Made by a program: the position numbers and the translations under genes. Positions 1 through 32,030 of a stretch of DNA of 64,000 bases are shown piece by piece; within the stretch, counting starts at the first letter, position 1; each line of letters opens with the position of its first letter. The stretch lies in assembly GCF_036507355.1 (NCBI RefSeq), contig NZ_AP027877.1; one strand, written 5' to 3'. Source of the stretch: Escherichia coli (lineage in GTDB: Bacteria; Pseudomonadota; Gammaproteobacteria; Enterobacterales; Enterobacteriaceae). The notes beneath the pieces were generated by a model. That model saw only the letters and a list, made by a program, of their open reading frames with translations, was not told where the DNA came from and ran no database searches.

Positions 1-616
<616 letters not shown>

Positions 617-626
617 GGAGCCTGAG

Positions 627-2182
<1,556 letters not shown>

Positions 2183-2189
2183 AATTTCA

Positions 2190-2216
2190 TCGGGTCCGAA
2201 TTTTCGGACCTTTTCT
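2190..2216 (+). terminator. Putative rho-independent terminator after ampC
   Basis: Hairpin GGTCCGAATTTTCGGACC followed by a T-rich tract immediately after the ampC stop. Confidence 0.5.
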
Positions 2217-2270
2217 CCGCTTTTCCTTGCTGTCATCTACACTTAGAAAAAAACCAGTAAGGAAACATTT

Positions 2271-2804
2271 ATGCGCCTGCTCCCTCTCGTTGCCGCAGCG
2301 ACAGCTGCATTTCTGGTCGTTGCCTGCAGTTCTCCTACGCCGCCGCGTGGCGTGACCGTAGTGAATAATTTCGACACCAAACGTTATCTCGGTACCTGGT
2401 ATGAGATTGCCCGTTTTGATCACCGCTTTGAACGTGGACTGGAAAAAGTCACCGCAACATACAGCCTGCGTGATGACGGCGGCCTGAATGTCATTAATAA
2501 AGGCTATAGCCCTGACAGAGGAATGTGGCAGCAGAGTGAAGGGAAAGCGTACTTTACCGGCGCACCAACTCGCGCTGCGCTGAAAGTGTCATTCTTTGGT
2601 CCTTTCTATGGCGGTTATAACGTTATTGCACTCGATCGGGAATACCACCATGCGCTGGTTTGCGGCCCGGACCGCGACTACCTGTGGATACTCTCCCGCA
2701 CGCCAACCATTTCTGACGAAGTGAAACAGGAGATGCTGGCAGTCGCGACCCGGGAAGGGTTTGATGTCAGTAAGTTTATTTGGGTACAGCAGCCCGGTAG
2801 TTAA
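2271..2804 (+). CDS. blc: Outer-membrane lipocalin Blc (177 aa)
   Basis: Track ORF 2271..2804; lipoprotein signal (LVVACSS lipobox) and lipocalin sequence recognised. Confidence 0.93.
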
Positions 2805-3118
2805 TGAGTGCTGAGTTTCAGACCAATAATCCCCAATACGATTAACGCCAGACTCGCCAGGCGCATCGGGTTAGCGGACTCACCGAGCAGCACAATGCCG
2901 GTGATGGCCGCGCCGACTGCGCCAATCCCCGTCCACACGGCATAAGCCGTTCCAACCGGTAACGATTTCATCGCCCAGGCAAGTAGCGCCATACTGACAA
3001 TCATCGCCGTCACGGTAATAACACTTGGCGTCAAACGACTAAAGCCGTGGGTATATTTCAGGCCAACGGCCCATACCACTTCCAGCAGACCAGCAATAAC
3101 TAAGATAATCCAGGACAT
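2801..3118 (-). CDS. gdx: SMR-family guanidinium exporter Gdx/SugE (105 aa)
   Basis: Within track ORF 2801..3181(-); start placed at Met 22 ([26 protein letters not shown]...) to match the known 105-aa four-helix SMR protein. Confidence 0.9.
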
Positions 3119-3298
3119 ATCAGGCTCCGGAGAATTGGGGCCGTCCCCGGTGAAAAGAGGCGTTTGCAGGTCGTCCTGCAAAGCTGATGGTTGAACGGAT
3201 ATTTTGCCAGGTGGCAGAGGAATTTCAACTATTACCTTTGTGACTATCGCAAAAAAACAAACGGCACGACACAGCTGTCGTACCGTTATTGCTTATTG

Positions 3299-3445
3299 CT
3301 ATTGCTGCGCTTTCGTTGCTGCGCCAGAAATCGCGTTACCGCCATCAGAAATGTCTTCACCAACGCCACGCGTGGTGTTGCAGGCAGTTAATACTGTTGA
3401 AAGCACCAGAACAGAAAAGATCGCTGCAATTGTCTTCTTCACCAT
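3299..3445 (-). CDS. ecnB: Entericidin B lipoprotein (48 aa)
   Basis: Reverse-complement translation gives [48 protein letters not shown]; below the track's length cutoff, located by hand. Confidence 0.9.
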
Positions 3446-3555
3446 AACGTCTTCCTTTTAGGTAATGTTATTTATGTTTGCCTATAGCAAATTAATAATA
3501 GACAACATCGCCAAAAATGATGGAAATCTGATGATTTTTCGGAAGAGAAGAAGAA

Positions 3556-24363: not shown

Positions 24364-25821
24364 ATGAAAACACCCTCACAGCCGCGCGCGATATACTATA
24401 TCGTGGCGATCCAAATCTGGGAGTACTTCAGTTTTTACGGCATGCGTGCCTTACTCATTCTCTATCTCACCCATCAGCTTGGTTTTGATGATAACCATGC
24501 CATCAGCCTGTTCAGCGCATATGCTTCTCTGGTTTACGTTACCCCTATTCTCGGCGGCTGGCTTGCCGACCGCCTGCTCGGCAACCGCACTGCAGTGATT
24601 GCCGGCGCGCTGTTAATGACCCTTGGCCATGTGGTGCTGGGCATTGATACAAATTCAACCTTTAGCCTGTATCTGGCGCTGGCAATCATTATTTGTGGCT
24701 ACGGTTTATTCAAATCAAACATCAGCTGTTTGCTTGGCGAGCTCTACGACGAGAACGATCATCGACGTGATGGCGGTTTTTCGCTGCTGTATGCTGCGGG
24801 CAATATCGGTTCTATCGCCGCCCCAATCGCCTGCGGCCTGGCTGCTCAGTGGTATGGATGGCATGTTGGCTTTGCCCTTGCGGGTGGCGGCATGTTTATC
24901 GGTTTGTTGATTTTCTTAAGCGGTCATCGTCATTTCCAGTCCACGCGTAGTATGGATAAAAAAGCGCTCACTAGCGTGAAATTTGCCTTACCAGTATGGA
25001 GCTGGTTAGTGGTGATGCTCTGTTTAGCCCCAGTATTTTTTACTCTGCTGCTGGAGAACGACTGGTCCGGATATTTGCTGGCGATCGTTTGCCTCATTGC
25101 CGCACAAATCATTGCCCGCATGATGATCAAATTCCCCGAACACCGCCGTGCTCTTTGGCAAATTGTATTGTTGATGTTTGTCGGGACGTTGTTCTGGGTA
25201 CTGGCACAACAGGGCGGCAGTACCATCAGCTTGTTTATCGATCGCTTTGTGAATCGTCAGGCATTCAATATTGAAGTACCTACTGCACTATTCCAGTCGG
25301 TGAATGCAATTGCGGTGATGCTCGCTGGGGTTGTTCTGGCCTGGCTGGCGTCGCCAGAAAGCCGCGGCAACTCAACATTGCGCGTCTGGCTGAAGTTTGC
25401 CTTTGGCTTACTGCTGATGGCTTGTGGCTTTATGTTGCTGGCATTTGATGCCCGACATGCAGCGGCTGACGGTCAAGCGTCAATGGGCGTGATGATATCC
25501 GGGTTGGCGCTAATGGGCTTTGCCGAACTCTTTATTGACCCGGTGGCGATTGCGCAAATCACGCGTCTGAAAATGTCTGGCGTATTAACCGGGATTTATA
25601 TGCTGGCAACAGGCGCGGTCGCCAACTGGCTGGCAGGCGTAGTGGCACAGCAGACGACAGAGTCGCAAATTAGCGGTATGGCAATTGCAGCTTACCAGCG
25701 ATTCTTTTCTCAGATGGGAGAGTGGACGTTGGCTTGTGTCGCGATCATCGTGGTATTGGCCTTTGCTGCCCGTTTTCTGTTTAGCACGCCGACGAATATG
25801 ATACAGGAGAGCAACGATTAA
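24364..25821 (+). CDS. dtpC: Dipeptide/tripeptide permease DtpC (YjdL, 485 aa)
   Basis: Track ORF 24364..25821; POT/PTR2-family signature with many TM segments. Confidence 0.95.
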
Positions 25822-26057
25822 CTGTCGTAAAAACAATTATTTATGAATAAATTAACTTTCAGTTTATAACACTAGCAAATCGATATTAATAAGTCATTTA
25901 AACCATTTTGATGGTTATTTATTAGTGATATCAACTTGAGGTAAGCGTTAGTTTCGATAAGATAAACTGAGTTACTAATAGTCGAGGCAGATAATACAGT
26001 GTACCGATCTGTCTCTTTATCTACGCTAAATTGAAAGCTGGATTTAGAGGAACCAAA

Positions 26058-27575
26058 ATGTCTGAACAAGAAACACGGGGAGCCAATGAGGCTATTGATT
26101 TTAACGATGAACTGAGAAATCGCCGCGAAAAACTGGCGGCACTACGTCAGCAAGGTGTGGCGTTTCCCAATGATTTTCGCCGCGACCATACCTCTGACCA
26201 GTTGCACGAAGAGTTTGATGCGAAGGATAACCAGGAACTGGAATCCTTAAACATTGAAGTCTCGGTTGCTGGCCGAATGATGACCCGTCGTATCATGGGG
26301 AAAGCCTCCTTTGTAACGTTGCAGGATGTCGGTGGCCGTATTCAACTGTACGTCGCACGAGATAGCCTGCCAGAAGGTGTTTATAACGATCAGTTTAAAA
26401 AATGGGATCTGGGTGACATTATCGGTGCCCGCGGTACGCTGTTTAAGACGCAAACGGGTGAGCTTTCCATTCACTGTACTGAGCTGCGTCTGCTGACTAA
26501 AGCACTACGTCCTTTACCAGATAAATTCCATGGTCTGCAGGATCAGGAAGTTCGTTATCGTCAACGTTATCTGGACCTCATCGCTAACGATAAATCCCGT
26601 CAAACGTTTGTTGTCCGTTCAAAAATTCTGGCCGCTATCCGTCAGTTCATGGTCGCGCGCGGCTTTATGGAAGTAGAAACCCCGATGATGCAGGTAATTC
26701 CAGGTGGGGCATCTGCTCGCCCGTTTATTACCCATCATAATGCTCTGGATTTAGATATGTATCTGCGTATCGCGCCGGAGCTGTATCTGAAACGTCTGGT
26801 TGTAGGCGGTTTTGAACGGGTATTCGAAATCAACCGTAACTTCCGTAATGAAGGTATTTCTGTTCGCCATAATCCTGAGTTCACAATGATGGAACTCTAC
26901 ATGGCGTATGCGGATTACCACGATTTGATTGAACTGACAGAGTCACTGTTCCGCACCCTGGCACAAGAGGTTCTGGGTACCACTAAAGTCACTTATGGCG
27001 AGCATGTGTTTGATTTCGGCAAACCGTTTGAAAAACTCACCATGCGCGAAGCAATCAAAAAATATCGTCCAGAAACCGATATGGCCGACCTGGATAATTT
27101 TGATGCTGCTAAAGCATTAGCTGAATCTATCGGTATTACGGTAGAGAAAAGCTGGGGGCTGGGACGTATTGTCACGGAGATCTTTGATGAAGTGGCAGAA
27201 GCACATCTGATTCAGCCAACCTTTATTACGGAATATCCGGCAGAAGTGTCACCGCTGGCACGCCGTAATGATGTTAACCCGGAAATCACCGACCGTTTTG
27301 AATTCTTCATCGGTGGTCGTGAAATCGGTAATGGTTTTAGCGAATTAAACGACGCAGAAGATCAGGCTGAACGTTTCCAGGAACAGGTTAATGCTAAAGC
27401 TGCAGGTGACGACGAAGCCATGTTCTATGACGAAGATTACGTGACTGCGCTGGAATATGGTCTGCCGCCAACCGCTGGTCTGGGTATTGGTATCGACCGA
27501 ATGATTATGCTGTTCACAAACAGTCATACTATTCGCGACGTTATTCTCTTCCCGGCGATGCGCCCACAGAAATAA
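26058..27575 (+). CDS. lysU: Lysyl-tRNA synthetase, heat-inducible isoform LysU (505 aa)
   Basis: Within track ORF 26031..27575; start ATG 26058 ([33 protein letters not shown]...); class II aaRS motifs; placement next to the cad operon distinguishes it from lysS. Confidence 0.95.
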
Positions 27576-27693
27576 ATTTCACTTTAATGAACGAAGCAGT
27601 CAGGCGACTGCTTCGTTCGTCGTTCCGCAAATCCAGTTTTGAGGAGAGACGCTTCGTTTCACGATAACCAGCGGGTCCACTCAACTACAGCTC

Positions 27694-27867
27694 CTAAAAG
27701 AGAGAAAAAAGTAATGCCACAGGCAGACTCATTGGCCAGGTTATTCCGACCAGGAATGCACTAAGTAAACGAATATGTGTTTTCTCATGTGAGATAAACC
27801 AGATAATGACAAAGGATATGTTCACACCAATCACATAAAAAATTAATATTTTAGAGAATAGTGCCAT
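27694..27867 (-). CDS. ghoT: Type V toxin GhoT, small membrane-lytic peptide (57 aa)
   Basis: Reverse-complement translation: MALFSKILIFYVIGVNISFVIIWFISHEKTHIRLLSAFLVGITWPMSLPVALLFSLF*; located by hand (below track cutoff); 27 bp downstream of ghoS on the same strand. Confidence 0.9.
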   Translation of the reverse strand: MALFSKILIFYVIGVNISFVIIWFISHEKTHIRLLSAFLVGITWPMSLPVALLFSLF

Positions 27868-27894
27868 TTTTTATGTTCTTCTTATCCTTCCTGG

Positions 27895-28191
27895 CTACTT
27901 GTAAAACTGACGGAAATAGTCATCAACTGTCATAATGTTGAGGTCAAAGTCAATATCCGGTAAGTCTAAGCATTTAAGCCTGATTAAATCTTCGATTTCA
28001 CTTGCGGCTAACGATGTCGTTATTGCGAAGGAGTTTTCATTCAATTGTCGTGGTATCCCATATTCATCAGCCACGATAGAGGAGAAATTCATATCATACA
28101 TCAATGATCTTAACCTTAAGAACACTGAGGAATAAGATGATGGATAATCAAAAGAAACAACATAAGTATTGAACTTGTTTTTACCTTCCAT
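27895..28191 (-). CDS. ghoS: Type V antitoxin GhoS, sequence-specific endoribonuclease (98 aa)
   Basis: Track ORF 27895..28191(-); MEGKNKFNTYVVSFDYPSSYSSVFLRLRSLMYDMNFSSIVADEYGIPRQLNENSFAITTSLAASEIEDLIRLKCLDLPDIDFDLNIMTVDDYFRQFYK. Confidence 0.9.
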   Translation of the reverse strand: MEGKNKFNTYVVSFDYPSSYSSVFLRLRSLMYDMNFSSIVADEYGIPRQLNENSFAITTSLAASEIEDLIRLKCLDLPDIDFDLNIMTVDDYFRQFYK

Positions 28192-28417
28192 AATATGACT
28201 CCTATCAATATTGAACGCTCTGGGGACGCAAAACTTATTAACCCCGATTGATGATTCTCATATAGGAGATATTCTTTTTTTTGCTCAGTAAAGGGGATGA
28301 CTTGGGACAAAAAAACGCGCTCTCTGCCCATTCTTTGTGCATCCCCCTACCCTTCAGATGCTCTCCTGCATCACACCGTGGAGAGCATGAAAAATATCGT
28401 GAATCTGTACTCTCCCA

Positions 28418-28690
28418 TCAACTGCGAATATCATCATACTCCCGCGTTTTATCAAATTCGTGTTTCGCAAATGGACATAATGGGATAATTTTTCGTTTTT
28501 CCCGACGCATTTTTTCCACGACTTTCGCAACCAGCTGTTTACCAATCCCTTGCCCTTTCAGGCTTTCATCGACATCGGTATGTTCGATAATCGCTAAATT
28601 CTCTCCGGTCGGCACAAAGACAATTTCAGCGATTTGCTTGCCCTGTTCATCATTAATGTAAAATTTATTGTAGCCTTCGCGTATTTCCAT
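28418..28690 (-). CDS. yjdJ: GNAT-family N-acetyltransferase YjdJ (90 aa)
   Basis: Track ORF 28418..28690(-); compact GNAT motif (QGIGKQLV). Confidence 0.85.
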
Positions 28691-28701
28691 TTTACCCTCG
28701 C

Positions 28702-28932
28702 TTATTTATGACGGTATTTCAGCGCGCCGCTCGGGCACGTATCAATCACTTTAACCACAGTGGTAACGTCGACTTCATCCGGCATGATCCACGGCTTTCG
28801 TTTGAGATTAAATAACTTGCCGTTGCCACGTACGCAATTGCCAGAATGCTGACATATCGCAGTATTGAAATAGACATCGATCTTTTCGCCGGTATAACAG
28901 CGATAACCCCCGTCCAGTAGCGCCTGATCCAT
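28702..28932 (-). CDS. yjdI: Uncharacterised Cys-rich protein YjdI (76 aa)
   Basis: Track ORF 28702..28932(-); recognised as YjdI; conserved cysteines suggest a metal-binding fold. Confidence 0.85.
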
Positions 28933-29112
28933 GACCTTCCCTCTCTCATCAGTATGATTATCGCTATAAGCATAGCCCTGGAATCCTCATACAGCACTGG
29001 CAGTTTCCGTTGCCAGAGTCTCTTCCCCTATATAGCCAATCATTCTTACTCCCTTTGAATTACCCGCCTCATCAGAGATAATGCTTAAGAAATTTGTCAC
29101 ACAAGGAAGCTG

Positions 29113-30744
29113 ATGAGACATTCATTGCCCTACCGCATGTTACGCAAACGTCCGATGAAATTGAGTACCACAGTGATCTTAATGGTCAGCGCGGTACTGT
29201 TCTCGGTGCTATTGGTGGTGCATCTGATTTACTTCTCGCAAATCAGTGATATGACGCGAGACGGGCTAGCCAACAAGGCACTGGCAGTGGCGCGTACTCT
29301 CGCCGACTCGCCGGAAATCCGTCAGGGCTTGCAGAAAAAACCGCAGGAGAGTGGAATCCAGGCCATCGCGGAAGCCGTGCGCAAACGCAACGATCTGCTG
29401 TTTATTGTCGTTACCGATATGCAAAGTCTTCGCTATTCGCATCCTGAAGCCCAGCGTATTGGTCAGCCATTTAAAGGTGATGACATCCTTAAGGCGCTGA
29501 ATGGCGAAGAAAATGTCGCTATCAATCGCGGTTTTCTGGCGCAGGCTTTACGCGTATTTACCCCCATCTACGATGAAAATCATAAACAAATTGGCGTGGT
29601 GGCGATCGGCCTTGAGTTAAGCCGCGTGACCCAACAGATCAATGACAGTCGCTGGAGCATTATCTGGTCAGTATTATTTGGCATGCTGGTCGGACTGATT
29701 GGCACCTGCATTCTGGTTAAAGTACTGAAAAAAATCCTTTTCGGCCTGGAACCCTACGAAATCTCCACGCTGTTTGAGCAACGCCAGGCCATGTTGCAGT
29801 CTATCAAAGAAGGCGTCGTTGCCGTGGACGATCGCGGCGAGGTCACGCTGATCAACGATGCCGCACAAGAATTGCTGAATTACCGTAAGTCGCAGGACGA
29901 TGAGAAACTGTCGACGCTAAGCCACTCGTGGTCACAGGTGGTAGATGTCTCGGAAGTGTTACGCGACGGTACCCCGCGCCGCGACGAAGAGATTACGATT
30001 AAAGATCGGCTATTACTGATCAACACCGTTCCGGTGCGCAGTAATGGCGTTATCATCGGTGCCATTTCAACCTTCAGGGACAAAACTGAAGTACGTAAAC
30101 TGATGCAGCGACTCGACGGTCTGGTCAACTATGCTGATGCACTTCGTGAACGATCCCACGAATTTATGAATAAATTGCATGTGATTCTCGGATTATTGCA
30201 TCTGAAGAGTTATAAGCAGTTGGAAGATTACATTCTCAAAACAGCCAATAACTATCAGGAAGAGATTGGCTCTCTGCTGGGTAAGATCAAATCTCCGGTT
30301 ATCGCTGGTTTTTTAATCAGCAAGATTAACCGCGCGACCGATTTAGGCCATACGCTGATTTTAAACAGTGAAAGCCAGCTGCCAGACAGCGGCAGTGAGG
30401 ACCAGGTCGCGACGCTGATTACCACATTGGGAAATCTGATAGAAAACGCGCTGGAAGCATTAGGGCCGGAACCCGGAGGCGAAATTAGCGTAACATTGCA
30501 CTACCGTCACGGCTGGCTGCACTGTGAAGTTAATGATGATGGACCGGGGATCGCACCCGATAAAATCGATCACATTTTTGACAAAGGTGTCTCGACAAAA
30601 GGAAGCGAGCGAGGCGTCGGTTTAGCACTTGTCAAACAACAGGTAGAAAATCTCGGCGGCAGCATCGCCGTGGAATCGGAACCCGGGATTTTCACACAAT
30701 TTTTTGTCCAGATACCCTGGGACGGGGAGAGGTCGAACAGATGA
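29113..30744 (+). CDS. dcuS: C4-dicarboxylate sensor histidine kinase DcuS (543 aa)
   Basis: Track ORF 29113..30744; periplasmic PAS sensor between two TM segments, cytoplasmic PAS and kinase domain. Confidence 0.95.
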   Translation: MRHSLPYRMLRKRPMKLSTTVILMVSAVLFSVLLVVHLIYFSQISDMTRDGLANKALAVARTLADSPEIRQGLQKKPQESGIQAIAEAVRKRNDLLFIVVTDMQSLRYSHPEAQRIGQPFKGDDILKALNGEENVAINRGFLAQALRVFTPIYDENHKQIGVVAIGLELSRVTQQINDSRWSIIWSVLFGMLVGLIGTCILVKVLKKILFGLEPYEISTLFEQRQAMLQSIKEGVVAVDDRGEVTLINDAAQELLNYRKSQDDEKLSTLSHSWSQVVDVSEVLRDGTPRRDEEITIKDRLLLINTVPVRSNGVIIGAISTFRDKTEVRKLMQRLDGLVNYADALRERSHEFMNKLHVILGLLHLKSYKQLEDYILKTANNYQEEIGSLLGKIKSPVIAGFLISKINRATDLGHTLILNSESQLPDSGSEDQVATLITTLGNLIENALEALGPEPGGEISVTLHYRHGWLHCEVNDDGPGIAPDKIDHIFDKGVSTKGSERGVGLALVKQQVENLGGSIAVESEPGIFTQFFVQIPWDGERSNR

Positions 30745-31460: not shown

Positions 31461-32030
31461 CGGATCGCTGGTTATCTGTAAGTAATAATTATTACCGTAA
31501 TGCAAAATACCCCTGGCACAAGTTACATCGTTAATCAGTAAAACTTGTGCCAGATCAAATATAATTATCCCTCCATCATCGTTAAAAATTAATATCTCTT
31601 CAGATGAACGGTGTTTTTAATTTCAAAACGCTAACAAAAGTTAATTAACTATTATGTCACCCGCATTATGTGTATTTTTACCCACAAATGGGTAAATCAG
31701 ATTAATCTATAAACCTAATGATATCTGCCCTGAGAACAAAAAACAGACCGATAAATATCAATAAGATAACAGCAAACAAAACATTAACATCTGCGCAGTA
31801 CAAACTTTAAACCCATCGCCAGAGAGTTTTTCTCTCTGAAAAAGCCGCTTATCACAGTGCATAAATTTGCCGCTGCTTTAATCAGCCAATATTCACTGTG
31901 AGGTATTTGCTAAAGCCGGTAACGACCAAACGGATATTTAGTCAGGCTCTGAAAACAGTTCATACAAAACAGAACGTGACTGTGATCTATTCAGCAAAAA
32001 TTTAAATAGGATTATCGCGAGGGTTCACAC
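31461..32030 (+). promoter_or_regulatory. dcuB upstream regulatory region (long AT-rich leader/promoter, expected DcuR/FNR/CRP control)
   Basis: 570-bp AT-rich non-coding gap with no ORF of significance; individual sites not resolved. Confidence 0.4.

Follow-up and report, generated by a model that had tools for sequence, protein, structure and literature searches.

The locus described here consists of two small genes on the minus strand of a 64,000-nucleotide stretch of Escherichia coli DNA, the whole of which is referred to below as the window. The first gene of the pair is ghoS (yjdK; 27895..28191, with its ATG at 28191 and its stop codon ending at 27895), which encodes a 98-amino-acid antitoxin, a sequence-specific endoribonuclease, and the second is ghoT (yjdO; 27694..27867, with its ATG at 27867 and its stop codon ending at 27694), which encodes a 57-amino-acid hydrophobic membrane toxin. 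The genes are adjacent and co-oriented with the antitoxin gene first, and the 27-nt spacer between them (27868..27894, minus strand; CCAGGAAGGATAAGAAGAACATAAAAA, read from the sequence) is purine-rich and A-rich. Upstream of ghoS are its translation initiation region, in which the duplex with the 3' end of 16S rRNA identifies a canonical Shine–Dalgarno sequence (28192..28216, minus strand), and the yjdJ–ghoS intergenic region (28217..28417, minus strand), which is the presumed site of the ghoST promoter. Beyond the other end of the pair, RNA folding places a perfect 13-bp GC-rich hairpin between ghoT and lysU (27589..27618, listed without a strand).

The pair had been proposed in a sequence-only reading of the window, and its coordinates have stood up well. 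The description of ghoS as a 98-residue gene on the minus strand agrees to the base with the open reading frame (ORF) listing (28191..27895), and the gap of 27 nt that follows it (27894..27868) is as had been noted. The ORFs of the window were listed here with a cutoff of 30 amino acids, the default cutoff being 60 amino acids. At 57 amino acids ghoT lies below this default, as the reading had pointed out, and a length-filtered track would therefore show ghoS alone and the pair would be missed. The module had also been placed downstream of lysU, which is correct as to position; however, lysU is convergent with ghoT, its stop codon lying at 27575 at a stop-to-stop distance of 118 nt. The gene lysU (window 26031–27575, plus strand) is assigned as such by its position near dtpC and cadA, but all of the genomes listed have it under the RefSeq/PGAP label 'lysS'. 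As called mechanically, the ORF begins at TTG 26031 (514 amino acids), whereas the start in the annotation corresponds to ATG 26058 (505 amino acids).

Translation of ghoT gives MALFSKILIFYVIGVNISFVIIWFISHEKTHIRLLSAFLVGITWPMSLPVALLFSLF (57 amino acids), starting at 27867, the first start codon past the upstream in-frame stop. Exact re-translation of both ORFs revealed neither a premature stop nor a frameshift. GhoT has a GRAVY value of 1.5 and contains two hydrophobic segments, at approximately residues 4–26 and 34–57, with the polar loop HEKTHIR between them; from the sequence, both are predicted to span the membrane, in agreement with the two transmembrane domains that GhoT and OrtT are known to have (PMC4344625). 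The Pfam family PF10753 (Toxin_GhoT_OrtT) matches the protein with 90.4 bits (cutoff 22.1; E = 8.9e-26), and residues 4–57 cover profile positions 1–55 of 55. Furthermore, the protein is identical in amino-acid sequence to RefSeq WP_001173343.1, and the earlier assignment of this hydrophobic ORF to GhoT is upheld by the intact translation, the family match and this identity. At the nucleotide level, ghoT shows no differences from the gene in a K-12-sized strain or in strain 88-3493. The residue F38 is present, and mutation of this residue to Arg (F38R) abolishes GhoT toxicity (PMC4344625).

An ORF of this length might be suspected of having arisen by chance in AT-rich DNA, with no gene behind it, given that it is short, that the GC content of the region (35%) favours spurious ORFs as well as promoter-like matches, and that no well-placed Shine–Dalgarno sequence precedes it. 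This suspicion has to be set against the match over the full Pfam profile, the RefSeq annotation of ghoT as a coding sequence and the conservation of the protein, which is 52–56% identical in Pantoea and 47% identical in Proteus. It must also be set against uniformity within the species, as 4319 genomes carry ghoT at an identity of at least 99% to the window copy and 1407 carry ghoS at this level, ghoT being the more uniform gene. In the case of the homologue OrtT, mutation of the start codon removes toxicity (PMC4344625), which likewise speaks against a frame without a product. The chance-ORF explanation is refuted by the family match together with the conservation across genera, and the probability left to it is negligible.

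The identification of the upstream gene is equally direct. The 98-amino-acid product is matched over its full length by Pfam PF11080 (GhoS) with 138.8 bits (cutoff 21; E = 6.1e-41); GhoS and GhoT each match their own Pfam family with scores far over the thresholds, and the names given to them earlier hold on database comparison. GhoS is identical at 98 of 98 residues to PDB entry 2LLZ chain A, an experimental structure that carries the title 'uncharacterized protein YjdK' after the old name of GhoS, and is identical in amino-acid sequence to RefSeq WP_000398619.1. The residue R28, in the context L25-R26-L27-R28-S29-L30-M31, is present in the translation and is the most important catalytic residue of GhoS (PMC4010927). 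An NCBIfam HMM search returned no model match for GhoS or GhoT, although PGAP names both genes specifically.

Comparison with other strains places the pair in its usual surroundings. In strain 88-3493, the coding sequences annotated by RefSeq coincide exactly with 27694..27867 and 27895..28191 once the offset of 24049 between locus and window is applied, and the RefSeq names of the products are 'type V toxin-antitoxin system toxin GhoT' and 'endoribonuclease antitoxin GhoS'. The locus in this strain is 99.8% identical to the window; its neighbours on the ghoT side are cadA, dtpC and a lysine–tRNA ligase in the position of lysU, and those on the ghoS side are yjdJ, yjdI, dcuS and dcuR. The gene arrangement around ghoST is the same in the K-12-sized strain (4,641,220 bp), and the order yjdI-yjdJ-ghoS-ghoT, convergent with lysU, recurs, in line with the synteny check proposed at the outset, in 88-3493, in the K-12-sized strain and in other strains. 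Among the small flanking ORFs, Pfam assigns yjdJ to GNAT (PF14542) and yjdI to Fer4_19. Over an 871-nt segment spanning the locus (27550–28420), the window shows two differences from 88-3493 and nine from the K-12-sized strain, the latter comprising three nucleotide changes in ghoS, all of which are synonymous, and a few intergenic SNPs. No consequence of these differences is apparent. The K-12 GhoT and GhoS thus have the same proteins, gene order, 27-nt spacer, flanking genes and GCU pattern as the window. The statement that the module has already been described in E. coli is borne out by the RefSeq annotation and by the protein identity to the K-12 pair, and the pair in the window is already known and has no variant features.

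The pair is nearly universal among the E. coli genomes that were compared. Of 5426 complete E. coli genomes, 5341 carry the 871-nt segment at an identity of at least 95% by megablast; as to the individual genes, ghoT is present in 5283 of these 5426 genomes and ghoS in 5317 (about 97–98%). Losses of ghoST are rare, and in all of those that were inspected (strains ES3, ET220 and E41), an IS1 element is located at the breakpoint. ES3 has kept ghoS and has ghoT broken at codon 34 (after 102 nt), whereas in ET220 ghoS is reduced to its first 50 nt and the region through tRNA-Phe (pheU)/yjdC is gone. In E41 both ghoS and ghoT are replaced, and lysU and dtpC are also lost.

The base composition of the two genes (GC content 35.4% for ghoS and 35.1% for ghoT, as opposed to 50.9% for the window) suggests an old horizontal acquisition that is now essentially core. 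Low-GC patches (32–37%) occur in this 51% GC window at approximately 27600–28350, which corresponds to ghoT, ghoS and the upstream spacer, at 25800–26100, which is the dtpC–lysU intergenic region and the upstream part of lysU, and at 31500–31800, just past dcuR. A mobile or defence context for ghoST was also considered and was rejected: PADLOC gave no match for ghoST, no phage homologue of GhoT was found, and the 'plasmid' records carrying ghoST (94 kb to 4.9 Mb) are all typed as non-mobilizable, the one that was inspected having a chromosomal neighbourhood. This record, NZ_CP048307.1 ('plasmid p009_C', 94 kb), carries the chromosomal block fumB-dcuB-dcuRS-yjdIJ-ghoST-lysU-dtpC-cadAB and is probably a chromosomal fragment that was mis-assigned as a plasmid. 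Several further 'plasmid' matches to ghoST are 0.37–4.9 Mb in size.

The toxin family extends well beyond E. coli. Genes of the GhoT/OrtT family occur in 78 Pantoea plasmid records (approximately 260–610 kb) and also in Proteus, Klebsiella and Salmonella records; with GhoS as the query, tblastn found no homologue in any non-E. coli record, and a tblastn search of the window itself found no second copy of GhoT or GhoS. The Pantoea agglomerans plasmid NZ_CP031650.1 has such a gene at 2501–2674, with fucO upstream, a gene for a hypothetical 56-amino-acid protein downstream and no ghoS nearby, which is an OrtT-like 'orphan' arrangement. The GhoT/OrtT toxin family is far more widespread than its type V pairing with GhoS. 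OrtT (YdcX) itself resembles GhoT in belonging to PF10753, in its length of 57 amino acids, in its two transmembrane helices, in having F38 and in its membrane-damaging toxicity; however, it is 63% identical to GhoT and is encoded at another locus, beside ydcY; no antitoxin accompanies it, and GhoS does not neutralise it (PMC4344625).

These observations raise the question of whether the 57-amino-acid product in the window could itself be an unpaired member of the family, either an 'orphan' of the GhoT/OrtT type or an ordinary small membrane protein, with GhoS being a general RNase that happens to be its neighbour. Members of the family do occur without GhoS, as OrtT illustrates, the Pantoea genes have no counterpart in the distribution of GhoS homologues, which are confined to E. 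coli records, and at the single Pantoea locus inspected the upstream gene is fucO and not ghoS. In addition, approximately 20 other mRNAs besides ghoT are reported to be cleaved by GhoS (PMC4010927). However, the protein in the window is 100% identical to K-12 GhoT itself and not to OrtT, its gene follows ghoS on the same strand after 27 nt, and the pairing is retained in more than 5200 genomes. Moreover, neutralisation within this exact pair through cleavage of ghoT mRNA has been published (PMC4344625; PMC4010927; PMC5086665). In K-12, the relief of ghoT toxicity by ghoS is reported to require both the catalytic residue R28 and this cleavage. An unpaired gene product is accordingly very improbable here, and the two genes are treated below as a type V toxin–antitoxin pair.

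The mechanism of GhoT and GhoS is taken from later papers, most of them from the same group, that summarise the primary work. The type V system of E. coli K-12 was described by Wang et al. (2012, Nat Chem Biol 8:855, cited in PMC4344625). The toxin GhoT is small and membrane-lytic. Its antitoxin GhoS is stable, has no part in regulating the transcription of the two genes and acts by specific cleavage of ghoT mRNA (PMC4344625; PMC5086665). The mRNA of ghoS is preferentially cleaved by the GCU-specific RNase MqsR; GCU is absent from only 14 mRNAs of E. coli, among them that of ghoT, which is enriched under stress for this reason (PMC4905990). Applied to the window, the literature would have GhoT act as a 57-amino-acid inner-membrane peptide with two transmembrane helices that causes membrane damage, a drop in ATP and lysed 'ghost' cells. 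GhoS would be a Cas2-like endoribonuclease that neutralises the toxin by cleaving ghoT mRNA, without binding the toxin or repressing the operon. The two genes are presumably co-transcribed from a promoter upstream of ghoS, and their transcript probably ends, like that of lysU, at the 13-bp hairpin. When the cell is under stress, MqsR, itself a type II toxin, would preferentially degrade the GCU-bearing ghoS part of this transcript and spare the ghoT part, so that GhoT would be made.

The distribution of GCU trinucleotides in the window is consistent with this published MqsR cascade (PMC4905990; PMC5086665), although a pattern of this kind is not independent evidence for the cascade. The coding sequence of ghoS contains three GCU sites, at coding nucleotides 121, 213 and 221, and that of ghoT contains none. 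The probability of finding no GCU in ghoT is 0.10 when the bases are shuffled and 0.31 when the codons are shuffled, so for a single AT-rich gene of 174 nt the absence is within chance; 4–8% of all 174-nt windows in the 64-kb window are also without GCU. The 3' UTR of ghoT does carry GCU, at 27691, 27672 and 27597.

The signals for translation differ between the two genes. The Shine–Dalgarno sequence of ghoS is UAGGAG, located 6 nt before the AUG and pairing with the 3' end of 16S rRNA at -6.8 kcal/mol. For ghoT, the best anti-Shine–Dalgarno pairing (AGGAAGGA) reaches -6.0 kcal/mol and ends 17 nt before the AUG, which is too far; pairing at -5 kcal/mol or better with the anti-Shine–Dalgarno sequence is reached by 19% of 25-mers drawn at random from the window. 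A ribosome-binding site before the ATG at 27867, on which the earlier reading had also touched, is only weakly borne out: a weak AAGAAG is present approximately 10 nt upstream of the AUG in an A-rich leader, but a well-placed Shine–Dalgarno sequence is not. Whatever ribosome-binding signal ghoT has is held by the 27-nt spacer. In partition-function folding, the bases of the ghoT initiation region (-20..+10) were unpaired with a mean probability of 0.49. The idea that cleavage by MqsR unmasks the ribosome-binding site of ghoT found no support, because this value of 0.49 in the full bicistronic model is the same as that in the 3' fragments beginning at each GCU site. Since a properly spaced Shine–Dalgarno sequence is absent and ghoT, 27 nt past the ghoS stop codon, is preceded only by an A-rich, half-unpaired leader, it could conceivably be translated by a non-canonical route, such as re-initiation coupled to ghoS translation or loading on the A-rich leader that depends on ribosomal protein S1; we regard this as unlikely. 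If true, control of the toxin would also operate at translation, which to our knowledge has not been described for ghoT.

Transcriptional signals were sought by consensus scanning, which found no convincing sigma-70 promoter in the 226-nt yjdJ–ghoS spacer. The sole sigma-70-like match on the minus strand, TTGATA-17-GATATT (9/12; 28455..28427), falls within the 3' end of yjdJ. In all there were four promoter-like matches, a number that agrees with the shuffle expectation of 3.0 +/- 1.7. No MqsA-box palindrome (ACCT-N2-4-AGGT) was found in 27401–28800. Structured or antisense RNA was considered as a further component of the locus and was set aside: an Rfam E-value scan of 27000–29200 gave no RNA family match, and plus-strand promoter-like sites in ghoT and ghoS are no commoner than in shuffled sequences.

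Consensus scanning likewise found no intrinsic terminator for ghoST. The hairpin at 27618..27589 has the form GAACGAAGCAGTC-GCCT-GACTGCTTCGTTC, with a perfect 13-bp stem. Folding of 27576–27700 on the minus strand gave a minimum free energy (MFE) of -39.4 kcal/mol with z = -2.38, and the hairpin appears in both the MFE and the centroid structures. It is not called an intrinsic terminator, since no U-tract follows the stem on either strand; on the folding model, it is probably a shared transcript end or a stabiliser of the convergent ghoT and lysU transcripts. Position 27619, which directly precedes the hairpin on the minus strand, is G in the window and A in 88-3493 and in the K-12-sized strain. 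In those strains the resulting U and the A that follows the stem could form a 14th pair, whereas in the window a C–A mismatch results; the effect of this change is probably neutral.

Two other groups of systems invite comparison with the pair. Cas2 has been described as a structural homologue of GhoS, with five conserved catalytic residues (PMC4010927), but GhoS differs from it in being a stand-alone antitoxin with no CRISPR–Cas context and no PADLOC match. The toxins of type I systems, such as Hok, TisB and Ldr, are, like GhoT, short inner-membrane peptides that collapse membrane integrity or ATP. In these systems too, control is exerted on the toxin mRNA and not on the toxin protein. However, the type I antitoxin is an antisense RNA, whereas GhoS is a protein RNase; the Rfam scan of 27000–29200 matched no RNA family.

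Taken together, the segment 27694–28191 is almost certainly the canonical chromosomal ghoS–ghoT (yjdK–yjdO) type V toxin–antitoxin module of E. coli, intact and unremarkable. Whether chromosomal toxin–antitoxin modules are physiologically important for persistence is a matter of dispute in the field. The only practical point to emerge is one of annotation hygiene, in that an ORF cutoff of 60 amino acids conceals the toxin gene. GhoS–GhoT is the founding example of the type V toxin–antitoxin systems and is routinely annotated by RefSeq, and its presence marks the window as a typical segment of the E. coli chromosome (cadA-dtpC-lysU / ghoTS-yjdJI / dcuSR).
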